From contig JAMCWG010000006.1 in the NCBI GenBank assembly GCA_023475235.1, forward strand, positions 33,377 to 97,376: a DNA stretch of 64,000 nucleotides. The letters are read 5' to 3'. Shown here piece after piece: positions 18,472 to 35,264 of the stretch; position 1 is the stretch's first letter, and every line of letters begins with the position of its first letter. A program made the position numbers and the translations under genes. Under the pieces are notes generated by a model. That model ran no database searches. It was not told the origin of the DNA and worked only from the letters and a program-made list of their open reading frames with translations. The stretch is from Chloroflexota bacterium. GTDB taxonomy: Bacteria; Chloroflexota; UBA6077; FW602-bin22; JAMCWG01.

Positions 18472-18720
18472 TTGGGTCGATTCTGTAATTGATGGGCCGT
18501 GCTAGTCCTTGGTAACAACATGCACAATTACAGGCAGCAATACGTGCAATTCGACTGACAGATATGCTATATTGAAGTCTAGTATAGCACTATCGGGTTA
18601 TATAATGACCTACTTGGGTACCTACCCTACAGGGCGGCTGACCAAGTGAATGGCTGGACGGCCGATAGGCCGGTAGCGGGGGGCTGCTCGATGCGGCCGT
18701 CTCGGCAGCGGGAAGTGAAG

Positions 18721-19758
18721 ATGTCAGCGCTGGGACTGTTCTGGAATAGGGTGGAGGGCCGGCCGCGCGCCTTCTGGCGGCTCCTGGCGCAGTCCGTTAT
18801 GTTTCTGGTGGCCATTGTCGTGTTCGGAGTCCTTAGCTCCGCCTTTGCGCTGGCGTTTCTTACCCGGACTGGAGGCACTCCTCTAAGCATCGCCGACCCG
18901 GCTGCGCTAAGGGAAGTCGCTGGCAAGTCCCCCCTCTTCATGGCGCTGAACATCGTCGGCTCTCTCCTGGCGGCTGTCGTCAGTGTGGGCGTGGCTGTTC
19001 GCCTGCTGGACCGCCGGCCCTTCGCCGACCTGGGATTTCATTTTGACAGGGACTGGTGGCTGGACCTGGCGTTCGGCCTGGGTCTGGGCGCGCTGCTGAT
19101 GGTGATGATCTTCCTGGTCGAGTGGGCCCTGGGGTGGGTGAGCGTCACTAGCACCCTGGAGCCCGGCCCTTCCGGGCTGCCCTTCGGACTGGCCGTCCTG
19201 GGGGGCCTCGTCGGATTCGTGGGGGTAGGCATCTACGAGGAGCTGTTTTCCCGCGGCTATCAGTTGCGAAACCTGGCCGAGGGGCTGAACTTCGACGGCA
19301 TCGGCCCCGCGGGGGCGCTCGTGCTGGCCTGGCTGATATCCTCGGCCGTCTTCGGCCTGCTTCACGCCGGCAATCCCAATGCCACCCTCGTCAGCATACT
19401 CAATCTGCTGGTAGCTGGGCTGTTCCTGGGTCTCGGGTTTGTGCTGACCGGCGAGCTGGCGATCTCCATCGGGCTTCACATCACCTGGAACTTCTTTCAG
19501 GGATACGTGTTTGGCTTTCCGGTCAGTGGGCTCGCCCGCTCGGCCAGCTTCATTGCCATCGCCCAGGGCGGCCCCGAAGGGTGGACGGGGGGCGCCTTCG
19601 GGCCGGAAGCGGGGATCGTTGGTCTAGCCGCCACCGTTGTCGGCGGTCTGCTAACCGTTGCCTGGGTGCGCCGCCACTACGGCTGTGTCGGCTTGTATAC
19701 ATCTCTGGCCCGGTATTCGCGGGGGGCACCGCAAAAGGGCCCATCAGGTCTCGATTGA
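18721..19758 (+). CDS. CPBP family intramembrane glutamic endopeptidase (CAAX protease-like)
   Basis: Multi-TM protein with the EELFSRGY, FGLLH and HITWNF motifs. ATG 18721 is preferred over the track start at 18646. Confidence 0.8.
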   Translation: MSALGLFWNRVEGRPRAFWRLLAQSVMFLVAIVVFGVLSSAFALAFLTRTGGTPLSIADPAALREVAGKSPLFMALNIVGSLLAAVVSVGVAVRLLDRRPFADLGFHFDRDWWLDLAFGLGLGALLMVMIFLVEWALGWVSVTSTLEPGPSGLPFGLAVLGGLVGFVGVGIYEELFSRGYQLRNLAEGLNFDGIGPAGALVLAWLISSAVFGLLHAGNPNATLVSILNLLVAGLFLGLGFVLTGELAISIGLHITWNFFQGYVFGFPVSGLARSASFIAIAQGGPEGWTGGAFGPEAGIVGLAATVVGGLLTVAWVRRHYGCVGLYTSLARYSRGAPQKGPSGLD

Positions 19759-20069: not shown

Positions 20070-21086
20070 ATGGAACTATCCGATAGCAGCACAGACAACA
20101 ACGTGGACCCATCGAAGATTCTGCGGCTCGACTCCGTCTGGTACAAGGAGCCTGACCCTCAGTTCGAGCAGCTTACCGATAACATAATCTTCCGCGTCAG
20201 GGAGCTGCAGCGGAAGAACAGCGAATTGGTCGGGCTTGGCAAGAGAAACGCAGAACTGCTGCTAGCGCTTCAGCAGTCCCTCGAAAGAGTCGCCGAGGCC
20301 CAGCGCACGACCCTCGCCCATCGTGATATGGCGCAGATTGTCATTATGACGGTAGGGCAGATGCTGGAGAGGGCAGACGACGCAATCAGCCTGATGCAGG
20401 TCGCGATGAAGCACGAGTACGCCCACGGATACGGCGAAGTCATCCGCCGGACGACGGCGCTGCAGAAGGAGATCGATTCGCTGCTCGAAGGCGAGGGAGA
20501 CGAGGAGCTCGTCCAGGACGAAGGGGAGGTCCAGCGCAGGACTGCCGAGTTCTTCCGACAAGCCGGCAATTCTATTCTGTCCATCGCCGGCCTGCTGCAG
20601 GAGCTCCTCGCGGAGCGGGAGCACAGTCAGCGGCAGCAGCCGGTTGGGGAGAAGGTGGACGAGGCCCGCCGGACCGCTGCGCCGAGATCAGATGTTCCCA
20701 CCCCTGCTGACCAGCCCGCCGACGATGATCGGGTTACAGGCGCAGTCCGTCACAAGGGCGCGTCGGCTGGCGCTGCGTCCGTGCCGGAGCCTGCGGGCGA
20801 TGCCCAGGATATCGAGATCGTGGCATCTCCGCTGGGCAGCCTCGCCGCCCTGACGGCATTCTGCAAAGCGGTGCGGGAAGTTGCCGGCGTCATCGAGATG
20901 AAAACGGAAGACTTCGACAGGGATACGCTCCGGCTCAAAGTCCGGTACTCCGGCAGGGGCCCGCTGGCGAGCCTGTTGATGAAGCTGCCTGGGTTCAGCG
21001 TACGCCTCGTGCAATTGGGCGTGGGCCGGGTCGTGATCGGGATCGGGGCCAGGCGGCCGGTGGCAGCGGGTTGGAAGGCAAGCTGA
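20070..21086 (+). CDS. hypothetical protein: coiled-coil N-terminal region, disordered linker, ~85-aa C-terminal domain shared with the next gene
   Basis: 338 aa. The N-terminal half is heptad-like and helical, followed by a Pro/Ala/Asp linker. The C-terminal domain (about 20802-21060) aligns with the C-terminus of ORF 21103-22221. Confidence 0.55.
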   Translation: MELSDSSTDNNVDPSKILRLDSVWYKEPDPQFEQLTDNIIFRVRELQRKNSELVGLGKRNAELLLALQQSLERVAEAQRTTLAHRDMAQIVIMTVGQMLERADDAISLMQVAMKHEYAHGYGEVIRRTTALQKEIDSLLEGEGDEELVQDEGEVQRRTAEFFRQAGNSILSIAGLLQELLAEREHSQRQQPVGEKVDEARRTAAPRSDVPTPADQPADDDRVTGAVRHKGASAGAASVPEPAGDAQDIEIVASPLGSLAALTAFCKAVREVAGVIEMKTEDFDRDTLRLKVRYSGRGPLASLLMKLPGFSVRLVQLGVGRVVIGIGARRPVAAGWKAS

Positions 21087-21102: not shown

Positions 21103-22221
21103 TTGGAACGAATGGTCAAGGTGGTGATGGAAGACAAGTCAGCCTTGGACAGGGTGAGGGTCCTCATCGTCGGCGATGATGATGGAGCATGCCAATTGCT
21201 CCATCTCGTCCTGCACAAGGATGCCAGGATAGCGGTGGTCGGCCAGGCCTCGGGCACCAGAGATGTAACGCAACTCACCTCGGCCGTCTCGCCAGACGTC
21301 GCTCTGGTAGACCTGGATGCCACCGATCAGACGACGCTGGCGGCGCTCAAGTCGGCCAAGCAGCAGATGGGGTCGGTTATGTTGGTGGGGCTGGCCGGCA
21401 ATCTCAATTCTGCCAGGACATCGCCCGGTGAGTTTGATGCTATGCTGGACAAGCGAGAGCCTCTGGATAAGCTGCTGACGAGTCTCAGCGATATCGGCGC
21501 CAGGCACCGGCACGAGCCGGTGACGCCGGAGCGCCGGGCGGACCCTGCGCCCGAAGCGCCAGAGAACAATGACGGAGGACCCGTTCCCCTGGCGCCGCGT
21601 CCCGTCGCCGTGCATACGACGGCTACGCCGGAGGGGGAAAAAGCTGCGGACACGAAGGTCACAGGCGAGCCCCCGGCAGTCCGGGCCGGCGCGGTCATCA
21701 GGCCGGGCGATGGGACGGCCGCTTCACATACGGAAGGTCGTACAGAAGGTGGCCGCGCTGAACGCATCGAAGGGGTGACGTCCGCCCTGTTTACCGGCCC
21801 CGCCGCTCCGCAATCGAGCCAACCTCAGCCGGGGGCAGACCCGCACCTGACCGTCGCTGCCAGTCCGGCAGGGTCGGCCGAGCCGGCGCCGGTGGTTGCG
21901 GCCAATTCTGCCGCCGTGAACGGCCAGATAACGCCGATATTGGTGGAGCTCAGCGTCTCCCAGTTCGGGAGCTTCCGCACGCTGTCCGCCTTTCACGCCG
22001 CGCTCGAAGGGCTGAGCGATATCCTTATGGCCAAGATACGGCGGTTCCACCGGGGGACGCTGTACGAGGTCGTGCGATACGCCGGGACGGCCCCGCTGGA
22101 AGAGCGCCTGAAGGAGCTGACGCAGTACCAGCCGACGCTCGTCGCCAGCCGGCCGGGCAGCATTGAGCTGCGAATCAAGTCCAGCGACGACCGCACCCTA
22201 GAAGCGTCTACGCCTGATTGA
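21103..22221 (+). CDS. receiver (REC)-like domain protein with long disordered linker and the same ~85-aa C-terminal domain
   Basis: The N-terminus VRVLIVGDDDGACQ...PDVALVDLDATD has the acidic pocket and phospho-acceptor Asp positions of CheY-like receivers. The conserved T/S position is Gly (LVGLAG). No DNA-binding output domain is present. Confidence 0.6.
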   Translation: MERMVKVVMEDKSALDRVRVLIVGDDDGACQLLHLVLHKDARIAVVGQASGTRDVTQLTSAVSPDVALVDLDATDQTTLAALKSAKQQMGSVMLVGLAGNLNSARTSPGEFDAMLDKREPLDKLLTSLSDIGARHRHEPVTPERRADPAPEAPENNDGGPVPLAPRPVAVHTTATPEGEKAADTKVTGEPPAVRAGAVIRPGDGTAASHTEGRTEGGRAERIEGVTSALFTGPAAPQSSQPQPGADPHLTVAASPAGSAEPAPVVAANSAAVNGQITPILVELSVSQFGSFRTLSAFHAALEGLSDILMAKIRRFHRGTLYEVVRYAGTAPLEERLKELTQYQPTLVASRPGSIELRIKSSDDRTLEASTPD

Positions 22222-22674: not shown

Positions 22675-22926
22675 GTGAATAGTGGGGGTGTATGGTCCGT
22701 GGACGATGGGTTGGGCATTGTCAGTATCTTTCTTGTTCTTGCACGCGTCTTCGCCGTCATCGTCGTCTGGCTGCTTATGTTCATCGGTGTTTTCACAGGA
22801 TATCTGACCATACCGCTGGTGATGCTGGCCGTTTTTGTGGCCGTGCTGGCGTTGCCAGATATCCTCAAGCATTACCGAAAGCTCATCCCCAGGCGCTGGA
22901 GGACGCCGCCACGCAATGATCTCTAG
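22675..22926 (+). CDS. small 2-TM membrane protein (putative first gene of the EPS operon)
   Basis: 83 aa with two clear hydrophobic helices. Its end overlaps the ATG at 22916 of the synthase. No family recognised. Confidence 0.4.
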   Translation: MNSGGVWSVDDGLGIVSIFLVLARVFAVIVVWLLMFIGVFTGYLTIPLVMLAVFVAVLALPDILKHYRKLIPRRWRTPPRNDL

Positions 22927-25900
22927 CACTCCTACATTTGACCACATGGGAGCCGGAGCAGAGGAACCGGCTCAGCGACCCTACACGCCGATCGTCTACT
23001 GGCCGATCAACTACCGCCTGGCACGCCAGATACCCGAATCCTTCGCCCGAGCCCGGCGGTTGGTCCCGCTGGCGCGCCACGGGGATATGTTGAGTGTAGC
23101 CATGGCCGATCCTGACGATGCCGAGGCGCTGGCCGAGCTCCGCCGGATGATGCCACACGAAATCAGGCCCCTCCTGAGCAGCGAAGGCGAGATAGGGGTG
23201 CTGCTGGACCGCGTCTTTCGCCCTCAGGAGCCAGCCAACCTGTTGCCGGCGCTATCCCGTGTCCTGCTCGATACGGGTTTCTTGACCAGCCATCAGATCG
23301 CCACGCTGGAGAAGGAGAACGAGTCGCGCTGGCCGCCCAAGTCGGGCGATCAGTTGGGGATCGGTGGCCTTACCGAAGAGGACTATGCCGAAGCGCTCGC
23401 ATTTACCTTCAGTGTGCCCCACGTGCGCCTCGATAGCTATCGCATTAGCCCTGCATTCGCCGAGCTCTTGCCTCGTGAATTCGCCCAGCGGTGGCAGTTG
23501 GTCCCTATGTTTGCCATCGATGGGAAGCTGGTGGTGGCCAGCAAAGACCTGCTTCCCAACGATGTGCTGGCTACCGTCGCCAGGCTGACTGGCTTCGAGC
23601 CTCTCCCAGTGATCGGTACAGCATCGGCCGTGGCGCAGGCCATCGCGCGGGCTTATGGTCAGGTGCGCGGCAATTCCAAAGGAACCGAGAAGCCGTCCAA
23701 GCCGCTGTGGCAGCAGCTACTCGACAGCGGCTTCATCGAGGGTGCCCAAGTGGCCAGTGCGGAGACTATCGCGCGGCAGACGGGCGAATCGGTCGAGGGT
23801 GTGTTGTTACGGCTGGGCCAGGTCGGGGAAACCGAGATCCTCAAGGCCCGCGCCGAGCTGCATAACTCCCAACTGGTCCGGCTGGCCGATGTGCACATCG
23901 ATCGTTCCGTTGCAGCGATCGTCCCGGAACCCGTCGCCCGTCGCTACCGCTGTTTGGCGCTGCATCGAGCTGGGCCGAGGGTGCTCGTCGCCATGGCCGA
24001 TCTGGCTGACAGCAACACGAGGAATCTGCTGGAGGTCTTGTTCGCCCAACCCGTCCACGCTGTATTGTGTAGCGAGGCCGACCTGCAGTCGGCCTTCGAG
24101 ATGGTATACGGCGTATCCGACGGCGCACGGGGGTCGGTGAGGCCGATGCTGGGGGAATACCTGGTGCAGAGCGGCCGGCTGACCCCGAGTCAGGTAGCTA
24201 TGGGCTTGCAGCGCCAGCACCAAACGGGCCGGGTCTTTGGGAAATGCCTCATCGACCTTGGACTGCTGAGCGAGGCGGAGCTGGCCGAGGTGCAGGGGCT
24301 CCAGCTCCGGCTGCCGTGGGTGGACGTATCACGATATGTAGTGCCGGCCGAGACCTCCTTCCTCCTCCCGCAGGAGATCGCCCGCCAGTACGGCATTGCA
24401 CCGCTCTATCGAGAGGGTCGCCTGCTGACCGTGGCCACCAGCGATCCCCAGAACGAAGATACCCTGCAAGTGATTAGAGATCAAACGGGGCTGAATCTAC
24501 GGGTCGTGCTGGCCGGAGAGACCGAGATACAGGAGGCCATCGACCGCATCTATGGAACAGACCTCTCAGCCATCAGCCAGGAATTGCTCGAGCTTGGGGA
24601 ACAACTGACAAGGGCCGGGCTCCTGCGCCGAGATCAGATGGTCCAGGTCTGGCAACGGCAGCTCCAGGCGGAGATGCCCTTCGATACGGCGGTGACAACG
24701 CTCGGCTTCCTCTCCGAGGAACAACTGGCGAGCGCCATCGCTGTCTACTTGAAGGTACCGCAGGCGGACCTCCGCTACCGGAGGATCCCGGTGGAAATCA
24801 TCGACGGCCTGGGGGCGCGGCGCCAGGTCCTGCGATGGACGGAGCCGCTCGAAGTAGAGACTGCTCGCCTTCTGCCCGAACACGTTGCCCGGCGCTGCAG
24901 CGCCATCCCCGTGAGCCGCGCCGGCGACTCGATCACAGTGGCTTTCGTCAACCCCGTAGAGAGCGACACTGTTGCCACGGTACAACAGCAGCTCAGATGC
25001 CCAGTGTCGATAGTCATCGCCACCCGCGAGCAGCTAGCGGAGGCCATCCGGCGCGTCTACAATTGCCGGCTGCTGGGAGACATCCTCCTCGAAGCGGACG
25101 TCATCAACCGCCGGCAACTGGAGGAAGGGATGAAGCTGCACCGGCGCAGCGGCGTCCGTCTGGGGAAAGCGCTGATCAGCCTGGGATATCTCACGCAGGA
25201 CCAGTTGGTGGGCTGCCTTTCCGAGCAGCATAACTTCCCGTACTTCGACCTGCAGGGGGCGGACATCCCAGAAGACATCGCTCGCAGCGTCCCGGAGACC
25301 GTAGCGCGGAGCAACGAATTGATTCCCCTGTCACGCCGGGGCGATACCCTGACAGTGGCGATGGTCAATCCTTTGGATACGGTGGCCATCGAACAGATCG
25401 AGACGCTGACGGGCTGCCGGGTCGAGCCGGTGATAGCTACCGAGGAAGACATAGAAGATGCGCTGGAGCGGGTGTACAAGGGCGACTACCTGTGGCAGAG
25501 CGCCAATGATCTGGTGTTCCGGTATCCCGAAGAATCGGCCAGCAGAGTCCTCACCTCGCGTCAGAAGGTGCTTCTCCTGGGTTTCCTGGCCGTGTCGATT
25601 TTGCTGATGGCCCTCAAGCCGGTGTCGTATCTCACCGTGTTGATTTCCTTGAGCACACTGTTCTATGTCAGCTTCTCGAGCTACAAGTTCTATCTGATCT
25701 ACAAAGCCCTGTCGCACAGCCTGGAGATTCCCCTCCTGCCGGAGGAGATCGCCACCCTCGACGACCGTGACCTGCCGGTCTATACGGTGCTGGTGCCTGT
25801 GTATCGCGAGGCGGAGGTACTGCCCACCTTAATCCAGGCTATCGATAACATGGACTATCCCAAGACCAAGCTGGACGTGCAGATACTGCTCGAAGAGGAC

Positions 25901-26929
25901 GATAAGGAGACCATCGCCGCGGTCCGGCGACACCAGCTTCCGGCACACATCAAGCCGGTCGTCGTCCCCAACTCTCTGCCAAAGGGAAAGCCCAAGGCGT
26001 GTAACTACGGCCTGATCCATGCCCAGGGCGAGTACCTGGTTATCTACGACGCTGAGGACATACCAGAGCGAGACCAATTGAAGAAAGTGGTGGTGGCGTT
26101 CCGCAAAGCCCGCAGCAATGTTGAATGCATTCAAGCCAAGCTGAATTACTACAATCGAGACCAGAATCTGCTGACCCGCTGGTTCACCACCGAGTACTCG
26201 ATGTGGTTCGACCTGTTTATCCCCGGGCTGGACGCCAGCAACGCCCCGATTCCGCTGGGAGGCACATCCAACCATTTCCGCACCGCGCGCCTGCGGGAGC
26301 TGGGGGCATGGGACCCGTACAATGTCACCGAGGACGCCGACCTCGGCGTGCGCCTTTTCAAGCACGGCTGGAAGACGGCCGTCATCGACTCGACTACCTA
26401 CGAGGAGGCCAATAGCCAGTTGTACAATTGGCTCCGGCAGCGGTCCCGGTGGGTCAAAGGTTACATCCACACGTACCTGGTGCATATGCGGCACCCCTGG
26501 AAGCTGATGCGGGATATCGGCGTGTACCAGTTCTTCAGCTTCAACATGGTAGTTGGGGGCACCTTCTTCGGCTTCCTGCTGAACCCCGTCTACTGGCTGC
26601 TGACGGCCACGTGGTACATCACCCGGCTCAGCTTGATCGAGCAGATATTCCCGGCCCCGATCTATTACCTCGGCGCGCTCGGGCTTTATCTGGGCAATTT
26701 TGCTTTTATGTACACGAATGTGGCCGGTTGTATGCGCCGCCAGTACTACGATATGGTAAAGTACGCACTGTTGAGCCCGCTCTACTGGGCGCTGATGAGC
26801 ATGGGGGCCTGGAAGGGGTTCATCCAGCTCTTCTACCGTCCTTCCTATTGGGAAAAGACGGTCCATGGCCTGTACCGTGGTGAAGTGAAGGTAGGAGTCC
26901 AGGCAAGCGAAACGACGGAGACTCATTAA
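22916..26929 (+). CDS. processive family-2 glycosyltransferase (BcsA/NodC-like synthase) with six N-terminal T2SSE_N/MshEN-type modules
   Basis: About 880 aa contain six repeats of the GspE-N fold signature (each ending ...A..R.Y/F). Five are preceded by paired 24-aa MshEN-like helices, e.g. MLGEYLVQSGRLTPSQVAMGLQRQ-HQTGR-VFGKCLIDLGLLSEAELAEVQGLQ and RLGKALISLGYLTQDQLVGCLSEQ. These are followed by 2 TM helices, a GT2 core (DAED 26048-26059; QRSRW 26438-26452) and about 4 further TM helices. There is no PilZ domain. Confidence 0.85.
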   Translation: MISSTPTFDHMGAGAEEPAQRPYTPIVYWPINYRLARQIPESFARARRLVPLARHGDMLSVAMADPDDAEALAELRRMMPHEIRPLLSSEGEIGVLLDRVFRPQEPANLLPALSRVLLDTGFLTSHQIATLEKENESRWPPKSGDQLGIGGLTEEDYAEALAFTFSVPHVRLDSYRISPAFAELLPREFAQRWQLVPMFAIDGKLVVASKDLLPNDVLATVARLTGFEPLPVIGTASAVAQAIARAYGQVRGNSKGTEKPSKPLWQQLLDSGFIEGAQVASAETIARQTGESVEGVLLRLGQVGETEILKARAELHNSQLVRLADVHIDRSVAAIVPEPVARRYRCLALHRAGPRVLVAMADLADSNTRNLLEVLFAQPVHAVLCSEADLQSAFEMVYGVSDGARGSVRPMLGEYLVQSGRLTPSQVAMGLQRQHQTGRVFGKCLIDLGLLSEAELAEVQGLQLRLPWVDVSRYVVPAETSFLLPQEIARQYGIAPLYREGRLLTVATSDPQNEDTLQVIRDQTGLNLRVVLAGETEIQEAIDRIYGTDLSAISQELLELGEQLTRAGLLRRDQMVQVWQRQLQAEMPFDTAVTTLGFLSEEQLASAIAVYLKVPQADLRYRRIPVEIIDGLGARRQVLRWTEPLEVETARLLPEHVARRCSAIPVSRAGDSITVAFVNPVESDTVATVQQQLRCPVSIVIATREQLAEAIRRVYNCRLLGDILLEADVINRRQLEEGMKLHRRSGVRLGKALISLGYLTQDQLVGCLSEQHNFPYFDLQGADIPEDIARSVPETVARSNELIPLSRRGDTLTVAMVNPLDTVAIEQIETLTGCRVEPVIATEEDIEDALERVYKGDYLWQSANDLVFRYPEESASRVLTSRQKVLLLGFLAVSILLMALKPVSYLTVLISLSTLFYVSFSSYKFYLIYKALSHSLEIPLLPEEIATLDDRDLPVYTVLVPVYREAEVLPTLIQAIDNMDYPKTKLDVQILLEEDDKETIAAVRRHQLPAHIKPVVVPNSLPKGKPKACNYGLIHAQGEYLVIYDAEDIPERDQLKKVVVAFRKARSNVECIQAKLNYYNRDQNLLTRWFTTEYSMWFDLFIPGLDASNAPIPLGGTSNHFRTARLRELGAWDPYNVTEDADLGVRLFKHGWKTAVIDSTTYEEANSQLYNWLRQRSRWVKGYIHTYLVHMRHPWKLMRDIGVYQFFSFNMVVGGTFFGFLLNPVYWLLTATWYITRLSLIEQIFPAPIYYLGALGLYLGNFAFMYTNVAGCMRRQYYDMVKYALLSPLYWALMSMGAWKGFIQLFYRPSYWEKTVHGLYRGEVKVGVQASETTETH

Positions 26930-28642: not shown

Positions 28643-28672
28643 GGTGAGGGCTTGCTTGAACGAGGAGAGCAC

Positions 28673-30373
28673 ATGGCGTCGAGCCTGACCTTACCGGCGG
28701 GGCCCGTTGTCGCTTCGACACCGAAGGCATCGGTGGGAGCTGTCTCGCGACAGGAGCCCTGGATCATCTTCGGGGCCAGCTTCCTGGTGTACGCCTTCAT
28801 CGGCTGGGTCGCTGCATATGTCATCCAGACCTACAACTGGGACGGCGTCACGCGCATCGCGCAAGCCCACGGCGTCTTCTTCAGCAGACAGCCTCATCTT
28901 TCCGCCATAGGATTTGTCTGGATGCCGCTGCCGGTGCTGACCGACCTTCCGCTGGTCTTGTTGCTCAAGCCACTCGGGCTGGTGTTGCTGGCCGGGCCGG
29001 TAATGAGTGCCTTGTATGGTGCTCTTGCCTTGACCCAGCTTTCCGAGCTGCTGCGGCGCTTAGAGGTGCCCGCGTTCTGGCGGTGGACCTGGGTAGCTGG
29101 CTTTGCAGCGCATCCACTCATCGTTCAGAACGCGGCTATGGGCCTCTCGGAAGCACCGTTTCTGGCATTTCTGTTGATGTCGATCAACGGTTTCGCCAGA
29201 TGGGACCGAGACCGCGAGCCTGGCGGACTGGTGTGGGCAGCAGTCGGTTCGGCGCTGGCCCTGTACTGCCGTTACGAAGCGCTGGCTTTGGCCGGGGCAA
29301 TGACGCTGGCCATCGTCTGGCGGCTGAGGCTCGATTCGGTCAGCATCTGGCGTAGGACGACAGGCGGAAGCGTTCTGGCGTTCATTACCCCTTCCATTTG
29401 GGCTTTGATCCTGTGGATTCTCGTGAACTGGGACATAATGCATAACCCGATATACTTTCTGGTAGGCCCTGGCTCAACTTCGACCACTCCCGACACAGCG
29501 CAAGCGGTAGGACCGAGCCACCCGTTTGCCTTCGCACAGGGCTCTGTGGAGGGCTCGCTTCGCCTCTTGCTCACGCAGATTGTCGACCTCGCACCGTTGG
29601 TGTTGCCAGCTAGCGCGCTCCTCGTCATCTGCGGGATATGGCGACGTCGCCTGGCCGATTTTGCATTTCTGGCGCTGGGCTGGTCGATTCTGGGCTTCGT
29701 TTTCCTCATCGCCCTCCGTGGACTCCTGCCGCCGTTTACGCGCTATTTTTTCTGGGTGGTACCGGCGGGCATAGTCATCGCGGGAGCAGCCTATCGAGCG
29801 ATCGCGCCCGGCTGGCCTCGGCATTGTGTGGCTTTTTGTACAGCGCTACTGCTGATCTTGGCATCCGTGTCGCTGTCGCTACAATCGTGGGCCCGGCTGG
29901 CAGACCCATTTCCACAACGTGTGGCAGGCGCTTTGCTCCTGCCACGGGAGGCGCTCTATCCGGAGCAGCTACGGGGCATGCTGGACGAGTTCAAAGAAGT
30001 GGCCAAGTACCTGAACAACGAGACGCCGGAGACACTGATCTTGTCGGACGCGGCCATTGCCTCTCCACTGGTATTTTTCTTGGATCGGCCAAACGAAATG
30101 GTGCTGACCACCGACACGGATTTCCTGCCCATTCTGCGCGATCCTGTCGGCCAGGTGGACCAGATCCTGGTGCCGTACCCGTCTTTCGATGCGAAGGGCC
30201 GCTCGGATATCCTGAAGCAGTATCCCGATTTGTACGATGGCGGCAAGCCCTGGGCGCAGCTTGTCCACGAGTTTCCCGGCCCCAGCGCCTGGCGCCTGTA
30301 CCAGGTGCAGAGGCCGGATACCGACGACTACGATGATCTCGACGATGTGGAGAATTATGCCGGCCGGCCCTAA
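28673..30373 (+). CDS. polytopic GT-C-like (ArnT/PMT-like) membrane protein, paralog 2
   Basis: GAGGAGAG lies upstream of ATG 28673. The layout matches the previous ORF (first-loop YNWDGVTR; C-terminal ...DQILVPYPSFD...AWRLYQV). The tail is acidic. Confidence 0.6.
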   Translation: MASSLTLPAGPVVASTPKASVGAVSRQEPWIIFGASFLVYAFIGWVAAYVIQTYNWDGVTRIAQAHGVFFSRQPHLSAIGFVWMPLPVLTDLPLVLLLKPLGLVLLAGPVMSALYGALALTQLSELLRRLEVPAFWRWTWVAGFAAHPLIVQNAAMGLSEAPFLAFLLMSINGFARWDRDREPGGLVWAAVGSALALYCRYEALALAGAMTLAIVWRLRLDSVSIWRRTTGGSVLAFITPSIWALILWILVNWDIMHNPIYFLVGPGSTSTTPDTAQAVGPSHPFAFAQGSVEGSLRLLLTQIVDLAPLVLPASALLVICGIWRRRLADFAFLALGWSILGFVFLIALRGLLPPFTRYFFWVVPAGIVIAGAAYRAIAPGWPRHCVAFCTALLLILASVSLSLQSWARLADPFPQRVAGALLLPREALYPEQLRGMLDEFKEVAKYLNNETPETLILSDAAIASPLVFFLDRPNEMVLTTDTDFLPILRDPVGQVDQILVPYPSFDAKGRSDILKQYPDLYDGGKPWAQLVHEFPGPSAWRLYQVQRPDTDDYDDLDDVENYAGRP

Positions 30374-32659: not shown

Positions 32660-33589
32660 GTGGCGGGAGGAAAGACCTTGGACGTGAGACAGAGTACTAC
32701 CACGAATCTGCTGATTGTCCTGCTGATACTGTGCGGCTACATAACGGCCGCCGTTCTGGCGGCGGTTGATTCTGGCGACACGGCGCTGCTGATAGGAGCG
32801 CTGGCCGGGGTTATCGTGGCGGTCTCTTTCGCCTGGCCGTTCACCAGGGCGTGGAGAATAGGTACCCTCGCCGCTATCGTGTACTACATTGGGCTGCAGG
32901 TCTACCGGATGGCCGGCACCGGCAGCATAATGGTGGGTCTGGACAGGGCACGACCGGTGCTCGGCTACGCTCCATCGGCCGTGAACTACGCACTGCCCGT
33001 GGCTGCTGGCGTGCTGTGCCTCGGAGTGGCCGGCCTGTTAGGAAATGGCGTCGCCCGCCGGCTCTTCAAAGCCGAAGCGCAACTGGAGCGTGATGCTACG
33101 GTGATCCGCGAGCTGACCATCCACGACGGCGACACCGGGGCGCTCAAGATGGTCTATGCGGACACGCTGCTCACTGACGAAATTGAGCGGTCGCGCCGTT
33201 ACAAGCACACGCTTTCGCTCGTGTTGCTGGGTCCGGATGACTGGCAGGCGATAGTCCGCGAGCGGGGGGATAATGAAGCAACGGAAGCGCTCAAGCTGGC
33301 CGGGCAGGTGATCAAAGAGAGCCTGCGGAACGTGGACATTGTGTCTTACCGCGAGCAAGCCCGCTTCGCCGTGATCCTGCCCGAGACAGCGGTGGCGGGA
33401 GCGTGCGTCGCCGCCGAGCGGCTGTGTCACTCCCTGGCGTCGAGGACTTCGATACTGTTCCGGGCCGGGGTGGCGGAGTTTCCGAGCGATGCGGTCAGCA
33501 AGGCCGAGCTGATAAACGAGGCCGATGCGGCGCTGAAATTCGCCCGCAGTGCCAGCCTCAACGTGGCCAGCCGCGTCTTGCTGACGTAG
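32660..33589 (+). CDS. 4-TM membrane protein with degenerate GGDEF domain retaining the RxxD I-site
   Basis: GGDEF-fold landmarks are present (DGDTGAL..., RSRRYKHTLSLVLLGPDDW, ...ADAALKFARSAS). The GG(D/E)EF position reads EQARF (33353-33367). RNVD (33326-33337) sits exactly 5 residues upstream, as in canonical I-sites. The start could instead be TTG 32678. Confidence 0.7.
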   Translation: MAGGKTLDVRQSTTTNLLIVLLILCGYITAAVLAAVDSGDTALLIGALAGVIVAVSFAWPFTRAWRIGTLAAIVYYIGLQVYRMAGTGSIMVGLDRARPVLGYAPSAVNYALPVAAGVLCLGVAGLLGNGVARRLFKAEAQLERDATVIRELTIHDGDTGALKMVYADTLLTDEIERSRRYKHTLSLVLLGPDDWQAIVRERGDNEATEALKLAGQVIKESLRNVDIVSYREQARFAVILPETAVAGACVAAERLCHSLASRTSILFRAGVAEFPSDAVSKAELINEADAALKFARSASLNVASRVLLT

Positions 33590-34127
33590 CCCGCGCCGGC
33601 GAGGCCCGATCGTTGCTGTAGCCTCGCATCGCAGTTTCACTAACAGTCGGGGGTTCGTGATTTTGGCCTTTCAGCGGCTCGGACTCATCGACTAGGCCGG
33701 CTGCATTTCCCGGCTGGGGCAACCTCACCCTCGGCCTTCGGCCACCCCTCGCCACGGCCCGCCAAAGGCGGGTCCGCCTCTGGTAGACGAGTCGTGCCCG
33801 AAGGGTATCCTGCGCCGGGCCGTGACGGCCCAGCGCTACGGACCTTCGGCGACCTCTCCGTGCACGGAGAGGGTGACAAAGGGGGTGAGGTATGCCCAAG
33901 CTGGCCGTGTCGCAGTCAACAAAAATTATGAGGAGCCCCCGGTAGTTGGTGGTTCCTCGCATCGCCTCCTGCTTCCCCTTTCTTTAACTGGCCCCTATAA
34001 TGTGTATCGGCGGGGTGCGGATTCGCCCCGCGATGGCCCTTCCGCCTGCGGCAAGCCGGGCGTCCACGGCGATGCGGGCTTGGCGCAGCGCCGAGCAGCA
34101 CGTTCGCAGGATGACAGGAGGCACAGT

Positions 34128-35264
34128 ATGCTGTTCTCCCCGTTCAGGGTAAAGGGGCTGGAGCTAAAGAACCGGTTGGTTATGCCGCCCATCGTGACCA
34201 TTTATTGCGGGCCCAACGGCGAGGTCACCGACCGATTGGTCGCGTACCTGGCGGAGCGGGCCGCGTCCGGCATCGGCCTGGTCATCGCGGAAGCGGCCTT
34301 CGTCGAGATGCGGGGCCGCGGCTTCCCCGGCGAGCTGGGCATCCACGACGATGCGCTGCTGCCCGGACTGAGACGCCTGGTCTCTACCCTCAAGGCCTGC
34401 GGCGCCAGGACGGCCATTCAACTGATGCACGCGGGCCGGCGGACCAGCACCCAGGCTGCCCAGGAGCGGCCGGTCGCGCCCTCCGCCATTCCCACTGTCA
34501 ACGGCGAGAAGCCGCGCGCCCTCCGCGTGGAGGAGATCGAGGCCCTGCCCGAGGCCTACGGCGCGGCGGCACGGCGGGCCGCCGCGGCCGGCTTCGACGC
34601 CGTGGAGGTCCACATGGCCCACGGCTACCTGCTGAACGAGTTCATCTCGCCTATCTCTAACCGGCGCCGGGACCGGTACGGCGGCAGCCTGGAGAACCGG
34701 CTGCGATTGCCGCTGGCCGTTCTGCGCAGGGTGCGCGAGGTGCTGGGACCCGAGTACCCGCTGTTCGTCCGTATCAGCGCCGATGAGTTCGTAGAAGGTG
34801 GTATGCGACTGCCCGACTGGCAGCGCGTCGCTCCCATCCTGGTCGCCAACGGCGCCGATCTCATCGACGTGTCGTCGGGCATACCCGAGTCGACCGTGAT
34901 GGGCAGTGCGGGCCTCCTCTCCGCGCCGCCCCGCACGCAGCCCGGCTACATGCTGCATCTGGCAGAGGGCATCAAGAGGGCCGTCTCGGTGCCGGTCATC
35001 GCCGCCGGCCGCATTCACGACCCGGCGCTGGCCGAGCGGGCCCTGGAGGAAGGGAAGGCCGACCTCATCGGCGTCGCCCGCGGGCTGCTGGCCGATCCCG
35101 CCTGGGCGAAGAAGGCCGCTGAGGGGCGGGCCGGCGAAATCGTGATGTGTACGATGTGCGGCAGGTGCCATCGCGACCTGCGTTCCTACAAGCCCATCAC
35201 CTGCCCCATCAATCCGCGCCTCGGCCTGGAGTACCAGGCGCCCGCCGAGCCGGCAAAGGCATGA
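34128..35264 (+). CDS. NADH:flavin oxidoreductase (Old Yellow Enzyme family)
   Basis: AGGAGG lies 7 nt upstream of ATG 34128. MLFSPFRVKGLELKNRLVMPP, HMAHGYLLNEF and RRRDRYGGSLENR are OYE signatures. Confidence 0.85.
   Translation: MLFSPFRVKGLELKNRLVMPPIVTIYCGPNGEVTDRLVAYLAERAASGIGLVIAEAAFVEMRGRGFPGELGIHDDALLPGLRRLVSTLKACGARTAIQLMHAGRRTSTQAAQERPVAPSAIPTVNGEKPRALRVEEIEALPEAYGAAARRAAAAGFDAVEVHMAHGYLLNEFISPISNRRRDRYGGSLENRLRLPLAVLRRVREVLGPEYPLFVRISADEFVEGGMRLPDWQRVAPILVANGADLIDVSSGIPESTVMGSAGLLSAPPRTQPGYMLHLAEGIKRAVSVPVIAAGRIHDPALAERALEEGKADLIGVARGLLADPAWAKKAAEGRAGEIVMCTMCGRCHRDLRSYKPITCPINPRLGLEYQAPAEPAKA

Follow-up and report, generated by a model that had tools for sequence, protein, structure and literature searches.

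What does a GGDEF domain without its catalytic motif do at the end of a polysaccharide synthase operon? This question is raised by an open reading frame (ORF) in a stretch of 64,000 nucleotides of contig JAMCWG010000006.1, from the Chloroflexota assembly GCA_023475235.1; the whole of this stretch is referred to below as the window. The ORF encodes a predicted membrane protein with four transmembrane (TM) helices and a C-terminal domain of the fold found in diguanylate cyclases, the enzymes that make cyclic di-GMP (c-di-GMP), and it directly follows a BcsB-like gene. The likely answer is that the protein is an inhibitory-site (I-site) receptor of the PssE/YdaK type, in which a dead GGDEF domain switches on the co-encoded polysaccharide synthase.

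Catalytic decay and retention of the I-site

The Pfam model GGDEF (PF00990) matched residues 155–298 of the protein with E=6.6e-13 (49.2 bits, cutoff 23.8) and was its sole Pfam match. The NCBIfam model TIGR00254 was also matched (E=1.3e-11, 44.4 bits against a cutoff of 37.4). An AlphaFold2 (AF2) model of residues 135–309, built from 24 sequences, had a predicted local distance difference test (pLDDT) score of 94 and a predicted TM-score (pTM) of 0.86. By Foldseek this model matched WspR, PleD, GcbC, DgcR and a phytochrome-linked cyclase, with TM-scores of 0.76–0.89 (E=1e-13 to 1e-10); for WspR, PleD and GcbC the scores were 0.8–0.89.

A preliminary description of the locus, made from the letters alone, had read EQARF at the position of the active-site motif and RNVD as an I-site exactly five residues upstream of it. 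Together with the PF00990 match, HMMER alignments to solved cyclases placed both motifs where they had been proposed. In the alignment of the query SLRNVDIVSYREQARF with SVREVDIVIRYGGDEF of 6d9m, RNVD coincides with the RxxD I-site and EQARF with GGDEF, and the same registration was obtained by HMMER on WspR and other solved cyclases. A profile made from 11 orthologues gave this registration as well and matched PleD (1w25) at E=6.3e-13. The spacer from D226 to E232 is IVSYR, five residues. Of the further I-site residues, R180 was aligned with R198 of WspR, which we take to belong to the secondary I-site, and R254 is presumably the equivalent of PleD R390.

The catalytic residues were compared in an alignment of the protein with seven active cyclase homologues. 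The metal-binding Asp is replaced by G191, the guanine-binding Asn by V199 and the guanine-binding Asp by T208, while GGEEF reads EQARF, the Lys is R296, GRN is SLN and NRR is KMV. We take the replaced positions to be D327 (metal), N335 and D344 (guanine) and K442 (Lys) of PleD. In the same alignment R177, R180, R223, D226 and R254 were all kept. Because the metal-, guanine- and phosphate-binding residues are all replaced, no cyclase activity is predicted: judged by its sequence, the protein is not a cyclase, and neither GTP nor Mg2+ would be bound any longer. A degenerate active site (A-site) can serve to sense GTP, as exemplified by PdeA of Caulobacter. This function was considered for the present protein and rejected, both guanine-binding positions being lost.

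An exhaustive profile search was performed for the family and yielded 186 cluster representatives at E<1e-30. Word-index searches had given only about 12 members, and the idea of a very rare family was withdrawn after the profile search. For the analysis of conservation 97 representatives were kept, with a length of at most 330 residues, an aligned TM region and no GG[DE]EF, and these were aligned to the family hidden Markov model (HMM). Identity to the query has a median of 32% in this set.

Among these 97 representatives over 60 different pentapeptides occur at the A-site, GG[DE]EF not being one of them, and the former metal and guanine positions are variable. R223 and D226 are each present in 97 of the 97, with the exact five-residue spacing to the A-site in 93. 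The helix alpha-1 residues are kept to the same or nearly the same extent, R177 in 97 of 97, E174 in 100% and R180 in 96 of 97 (99%). At the position of R254, Arg was found in 64 and Lys in 28, the other five having a different residue or a gap. When the columns of the whole protein were ranked, E174, R177, R223, D226 and R180 were the five most conserved, above all glycines and prolines of the core. In this alignment, the perfect retention of the I-site after full catalytic decay indicates selection on the I-site itself.

A conserved synthase operon and its closest counterparts

Five co-directional genes, separated by gaps of 9, 9, 30 and 30–54 nt, make up a cellulose-synthase-like operon that ends with the GGDEF gene. 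The first gene encodes a glycosyltransferase of family 2 (GT2) in which Pfam found MshEN in six stretches (E=6.3e-104), in addition to GT2 families and without a PilZ domain. Among the NCBIfam models this synthase matched NfrB (E=2.2e-57) and CelA (E=3.1e-23). It is followed by two membrane proteins of about 570 residues which are 26–29% identical and whose paralogy was found by tblastn. The window copies of these two proteins had no match in Pfam; their orthologues match PMT_2 or Glyco_transf_22, and a weak match to the LA_3751/3752 glycosyltransferase family was also observed. The fourth gene encodes the BcsB-like subunit.

In all ten distinct orthologous loci (35–69% identity) a BcsB gene lies directly upstream of the GGDEF gene, and in one of them (L019) the GGDEF start overlaps the BcsB stop. 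The order MshEN-GT2, GT-C-like, BcsB, GGDEF was found wherever the contig reaches, namely in the window and in loci L001, L004, L014 and L019, with one or two copies of the GT-C-like gene. The genes downstream of the operon differ between the orthologous loci. No further GGDEF domain was found within the 64-kb window, so any cyclase partner must be encoded elsewhere.

The preliminary description had presented the GGDEF protein as a second c-di-GMP input, besides the MshEN array of the synthase. The NCBIfam model c-di-GMP_motif, of 53 residues, matched the synthase with 110.5 bits, and three of the six MshEN repeats pass it, the best at residues 747–798. As the synthase also resembles NfrB, the notion of a second input is credible, and we consider it plausible. 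Part of the array may be non-binding, since the remaining repeats have divergent binding motifs. A strict regular expression for the published 24-residue MshEN motif had found only one canonical half-motif (residues 775–798); an inert MshEN array, proposed on that basis, was dropped after the 110-bit NCBIfam match.

Likeness to PssE and YdaK was drawn from published descriptions. On this comparison, PssE of Listeria and YdaK of Bacillus subtilis appear to be the closest known counterparts, nearer than PelD. PssE (Lmo0531) of Listeria monocytogenes is encoded by the last gene of pssA–E, after the genes for the GT2 PssC and the BcsB orthologue PssD (PMC4125290). Its A-site is DKDDA, preceded at a distance of five residues by RxxD. 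The GGDEF domain of PssE binds c-di-GMP with a dissociation constant (Kd) of 0.79 uM, each protein taking up about two molecules, and PssE is indispensable for exopolysaccharide (EPS) production (PMC4125290). Like PssE, the present protein is membrane-anchored, has a C-terminal degenerate GGDEF domain with RxxD at the same spacing and is encoded with a GT2 and a BcsB protein, in a monoderm-type host without BcsC. The two systems differ in host, Firmicutes versus metagenome-assembled genomes (MAGs) of Chloroflexota, and in the synthase: PssC has no c-di-GMP-binding domain of its own, so that PssE is the sole receptor of the pss system, whereas the synthase described here has six MshEN repeats.

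YdaK, encoded in ydaJKLMN, has four TM helices, SDERI at the A-site, R202xxD205 five residues upstream of it and R157xxR160, and the mutants R202A and D205A abolish EPS (PMC5422440). By mass spectrometry after hydrogen-deuterium exchange (HDX-MS), c-di-GMP was located at the YdaK I-site, and its binding is needed for the interaction with DgcK (PMC7064775). Common to YdaK and the present protein are the four predicted TM helices, the degenerate GGDEF domain, the GT2 and BcsB-like partners (YdaM and YdaN) and an RxxR about 45 residues upstream of the I-site, the spacing of R157xxR160 matching that of R177xxR180. In contrast to the operon described here, ydaK precedes the synthase genes, YdaM is without MshEN domains and a cognate cyclase, DgcK, is known. 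No PssE or YdaK model was present among the NCBIfam matches of the protein.

PelD of Pseudomonas aeruginosa had been put forward in the preliminary description as the paradigm. This holds for the class of mechanism, as PelD also combines TM helices in the inner membrane with a degenerate GGDEF domain, and its RxxD I-site binds c-di-GMP and activates polysaccharide synthesis. Membership of the PelD family was rejected. PelD carries a GAF domain between anchor and GGDEF domain, whereas here no GAF domain is present and only about 23 residues join TM4 to the domain. The Pel system relies on PelF, a GT4 enzyme, and lacks BcsB, whereas here the gene is surrounded by GT2, GT-C-like and BcsB genes and no pel genes were found. 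Neither the sequence matches nor the top 50 fold matches included PelD.

A precedent for two separate c-di-GMP receptors in one BcsA/BcsB-type machine comes from E. coli, with BcsA-PilZ and BcsE, whose GIL domain is derived from a degenerate GGDEF I-site (PMC7439463). BcsE is a soluble, multi-domain protein with an RxGD motif, whereas RNVD here lies in a complete GGDEF fold; a Pfam search of the protein gave no GIL match at E<=10. NfrB is a precedent for a GT2 under the control of a MshEN domain (PMC8669469). It differs from the present synthase in its single, C-terminal MshEN domain and in having neither a BcsB nor a GGDEF-receptor partner. In the literature searched, no described Chloroflexi system of MshEN-GT2, BcsB and GGDEF was found. 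What is new here is the phylum, together with the pairing of a dead-GGDEF receptor with a synthase bearing its own MshEN array.

Gene start, membrane anchor and surrounding genes

The coordinates of the gene, its motifs and the surrounding genes are given in the table.

Table. Features of the locus in window coordinates, with residue (aa) numbers of the GGDEF protein as listed from GTG 32660.
Feature	Position	Strand	Basis or remark
ORF with four TM helices and degenerate GGDEF domain	32660..33589	+	309 aa from GTG as listed
GGAGG, Shine-Dalgarno-like (putative role)	32666..32670	+	Read from sequence; 7 nt before TTG 32678, 13 nt before GTG 32684
Membrane anchor, four hydrophobic helices	32705..33052	+	aa ~16–36, 41–59, 67–86, 108–131
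Juxtamembrane stalk helix, aa 132–154, continuing TM4	33053..33121	+	AF2 helix H2-20 of the soluble-domain model
Stalk motif I-x-E-L-T, aa 149–153	33104..33118	+	Invariant in 11 orthologues
Catalytically degenerate GGDEF-fold domain, aa 155–298	33122..33553	+	Pfam, AF2, Foldseek
Helix alpha-1 motif E174-x-x-R177-x-R179-R180	33179..33199	+	Alignment to WspR; comparison with YdaK
Primary I-site R223-N-V-D226 (RxxD)	33326..33337	+	Aligns to RxxD of solved cyclases
Degenerate A-site pentapeptide E232-Q-A-R-F236, replacing GG(D/E)EF	33353..33367	+	Alignment to cyclases
R254, additional I-site arginine	33419..33421	+	Aligned to conserved AERxR of active cyclases
R268, arginine replacing Ser of the cyclase strand S-x-G-x-A	33461..33463	+	Invariant in 11 orthologues; 67 of 97 representatives
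MshEN-GT2 synthase, 1364 aa as listed	22835..26929	+	Six N-terminal MshEN repeats, processive GT2
Two paralogous membrane proteins, ~570 aa	26939..28642 and 28652..30373	+	GT-C/PMT_2-like in orthologues
BcsB-like subunit, 741 aa	30404..32629	+	Pfam BcsB E=3.2e-48; stop 30–54 nt before GGDEF start
Rce1-like CAAX-type membrane protease	18646..19758	+	Upstream flank
Gene with ~80-aa C-terminal domain (aa 248–309)	20070..21086		Upstream of the operon
Gene with ~80-aa C-terminal domain (aa 281–372)	21103..22221		Upstream of the operon
Old Yellow Enzyme-type NADH:flavin oxidoreductase	33822..35264	+	Downstream flank

A public NCBI protein (P0001) is 100% identical to the product of the ORF and 301 residues long. 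The GGAGG falls within the listed ORF. Translation probably begins at GTG 32684, the start of P0001, or at TTG 32678, instead of at GTG 32660. Scans for promoters and terminators around the gene were uninformative, as the terminator-like matches were intragenic, and so was the folding of the downstream spacer (z-score 0.55). P0001 carries the public name 'diguanylate cyclase' and the label of a Bacteroidetes MAG. This label may reflect mis-binning, which is suspected because the orthologues with taxonomic labels are all from Chloroflexota MAGs and the G+C content of the window is 63%.

TM segments were called by hydropathy only (Kyte-Doolittle), supplemented with loop charges. The four N-terminal helices mentioned in the preliminary description were recovered, and in the Kyte-Doolittle scans four hydrophobic segments recur at equivalent positions in ten orthologues. 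An N-in/C-in topology with a cytoplasmic GGDEF domain is predicted, which the loop charges fit. In a full-length AF2 model from a 6-sequence alignment the four helices are visible at low confidence (pLDDT 52), and this model was left unused. The fold matches to the stalk take in the stalk helices of WspR and of the phytochrome-linked cyclase. Active cyclases have nothing that obviously corresponds to two conserved, family-specific features of the protein, the stalk motif I149-x-E-L-T153 and R268.

Two genes upstream of the operon share a C-terminal domain of about 80 residues, for which no Pfam match was found. The 372-residue product of the second gene also has a weak receiver-like N-terminus (E=0.0037). 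In orthologous loci (L001, 1424–1699; L019, 151–348) the same domain is again found a short way upstream of the MshEN-GT2 gene. In a further locus (L022, 3161–3334) it ends a protein of 534 residues encoded 4 nt upstream of a distant degenerate-GGDEF member. The oxidoreductase gene downstream of the operon is not conserved beside it in the orthologous loci.

Other gene contexts were observed for more distant relatives. In locus L021 (720–3077) the family member P0083, of 318 residues, is followed by a second GGDEF gene (397 residues), which resembles the query domain about as closely as P0083 does. Close by, on the other strand, is a gene for a GH113 glycoside hydrolase, and no BcsB was detectable in this locus, which points to a different partner system. 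A Cytophagia MAG (L015, 4734–5376) contains a shorter degenerate GGDEF protein with RACD, five residues and VTNDY, encoded directly downstream of genes for Wza-like export, a Wzz/GNVR chain-length protein and a ParA/BY-kinase-like ATPase. This arrangement suggests that I-site receptors are attached to Wzx/Wzy-type polysaccharide loci too.

Proposed role of the protein in the synthase complex

In the mechanism proposed here, the four TM helices would hold the dead GGDEF domain at the cytoplasmic face of the membrane. By analogy with PleD, WspR and PssE, the intact I-site (R223xxD226, R177, R180 and R254) would bind c-di-GMP, the ligand probably being an intercalated dimer. The liganded protein would then activate the co-encoded BcsA-like GT2/BcsB synthase through contacts of the TM helices and the stalk inside the membrane complex. 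A cognate diguanylate cyclase could possibly dock onto it, as YdaK docks DgcK, and the MshEN repeats of the synthase would form a second, independent c-di-GMP input. Based on the analogy with characterised I-sites, we have good confidence in the binding of c-di-GMP. The sign of the effect, activation, and the physical partner are what we infer from the whole. The preliminary description had likewise suggested a receptor or activator subunit for the upstream synthase complex, and this suggestion is strengthened by the catalytic loss, the conservation of the I-site and the synteny in ten orthologues; the binding and activation that it implies are predicted from sequence.

Several points weigh against an I-site receptor that activates the synthase. 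RxxD was found in 19 of the 19 active cyclases retrieved by the family profile, so a lone RxxD is unremarkable and its presence ancestral; what exceeds chance is the invariance of the I-site throughout the family, not a single RxxD. I-site residues can also mediate protein contacts, as between YdaK and DgcK, and conservation alone cannot separate binding from docking. Nor is it obvious why another receptor should be needed when the synthase itself has probable c-di-GMP receptors. The distant family members P0083, P0111 and P0129 are not located beside BcsB, and since such members sit in other contexts the BcsB linkage is a trait of the subfamily and not of the whole family. Finally, the full-length AF2 model, which would cover the TM helices proposed to contact the synthase, is poor.

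Among the alternatives, the one that survives best is that the I-site surface recruits an active cyclase as a c-di-GMP-bridged GGDEF-GGDEF heterodimer. The protein would then be a scaffold and not a switch, and the locally made c-di-GMP would be read by the MshEN repeats of the synthase. As both explanations need an intact I-site, this one overlaps with an I-site receptor of the PssE/YdaK type, and the YdaK-DgcK interaction, which needs the YdaK I-site (PMC7064775), speaks for it. So do the predicted c-di-GMP-binding repeats of the synthase itself and its resemblance to NfrB. NfrB is served by a dedicated local cyclase. For the present protein, however, no operon-linked partner cyclase can be named, and the conservation of R180 and R254 fits ligand clamping equally well. 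The isolated PssE domain, moreover, needs no partner to bind c-di-GMP, and no other receptor is predicted in its system (PMC4125290), and because this domain alone binds the ligand, a receptor role is sufficient in the closest precedent. Recruitment of a cyclase as the main function is considered quite unlikely.

It is very unlikely that the protein is a structural subunit without a role in signalling, its GGDEF fold an assembly scaffold for the GT2/BcsB/GT-C complex that binds no nucleotide and its conserved Arg and Asp serving folding or subunit contacts. Synteny proves a functional link only and not ligand binding, and degenerate GGDEF domains that act independently of c-di-GMP exist, a staphylococcal case being among the works cited in PMC4125290. 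The five most conserved columns of the family, however, are the residues that contact c-di-GMP in characterised I-sites. In many GGDEF domains the I-site positions vary freely, so that the fold does not depend on these residues.

A negative regulator or c-di-GMP sink is highly improbable. Here the I-site would sequester c-di-GMP from the MshEN array, or the liganded protein would inhibit the synthase, and an upper limit or a threshold for activation would be set. The I-site is inhibitory in active cyclases, and two receptors of differing affinity could form a threshold device. PelD, however, acts as a positive factor. PssE and YdaK, all the characterised receptors of this operon-encoded, degenerate-GGDEF I-site kind that were retrieved, are both positive factors as well, required for synthesis (PMC4125290, PMC5422440). 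Scarcely credible, lastly, is the reading, suggested by the NCBI name of the identical protein and by the cyclase fold, that the protein is a diguanylate cyclase active through a non-canonical motif. GG(D/E)EF has lost its two glycines and its two acidic residues, and the metal Asp, both guanine residues and the phosphate-binding Lys and Arg are gone too; GG[DE]EF is present in 0 of the 97 family representatives, a set kept for lacking it.

The operon as a whole might, tentatively, be a two-receptor c-di-GMP device in which the I-site receptor and the six-fold MshEN array act in series or as a coincidence gate, although we regard this as rather unlikely. If it were true, the GGDEF receptor may capture c-di-GMP or a cyclase and pass the signal on to the MshEN repeats, or differing affinities may set two thresholds. 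The family of about 100 clusters with four TM helices and a dead GGDEF domain would then form a general class, so far undescribed, of c-di-GMP adaptors that plug into membrane machines, which fits the occurrence of its distant members in other gene contexts.

The public name 'diguanylate cyclase' is wrong for this protein and its relatives, and it would inflate the counts of c-di-GMP-making enzymes in these genomes. With the I-site as its most conserved feature, this family of about 100 sequence clusters is a natural data set for what an I-site receptor requires. The presence of both types of receptor, MshEN and I-site, on one polysaccharide machine makes the question of two receptors testable. 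If confirmed, the control mode of PssE and YdaK would extend beyond the Firmicutes to uncultured Chloroflexota.

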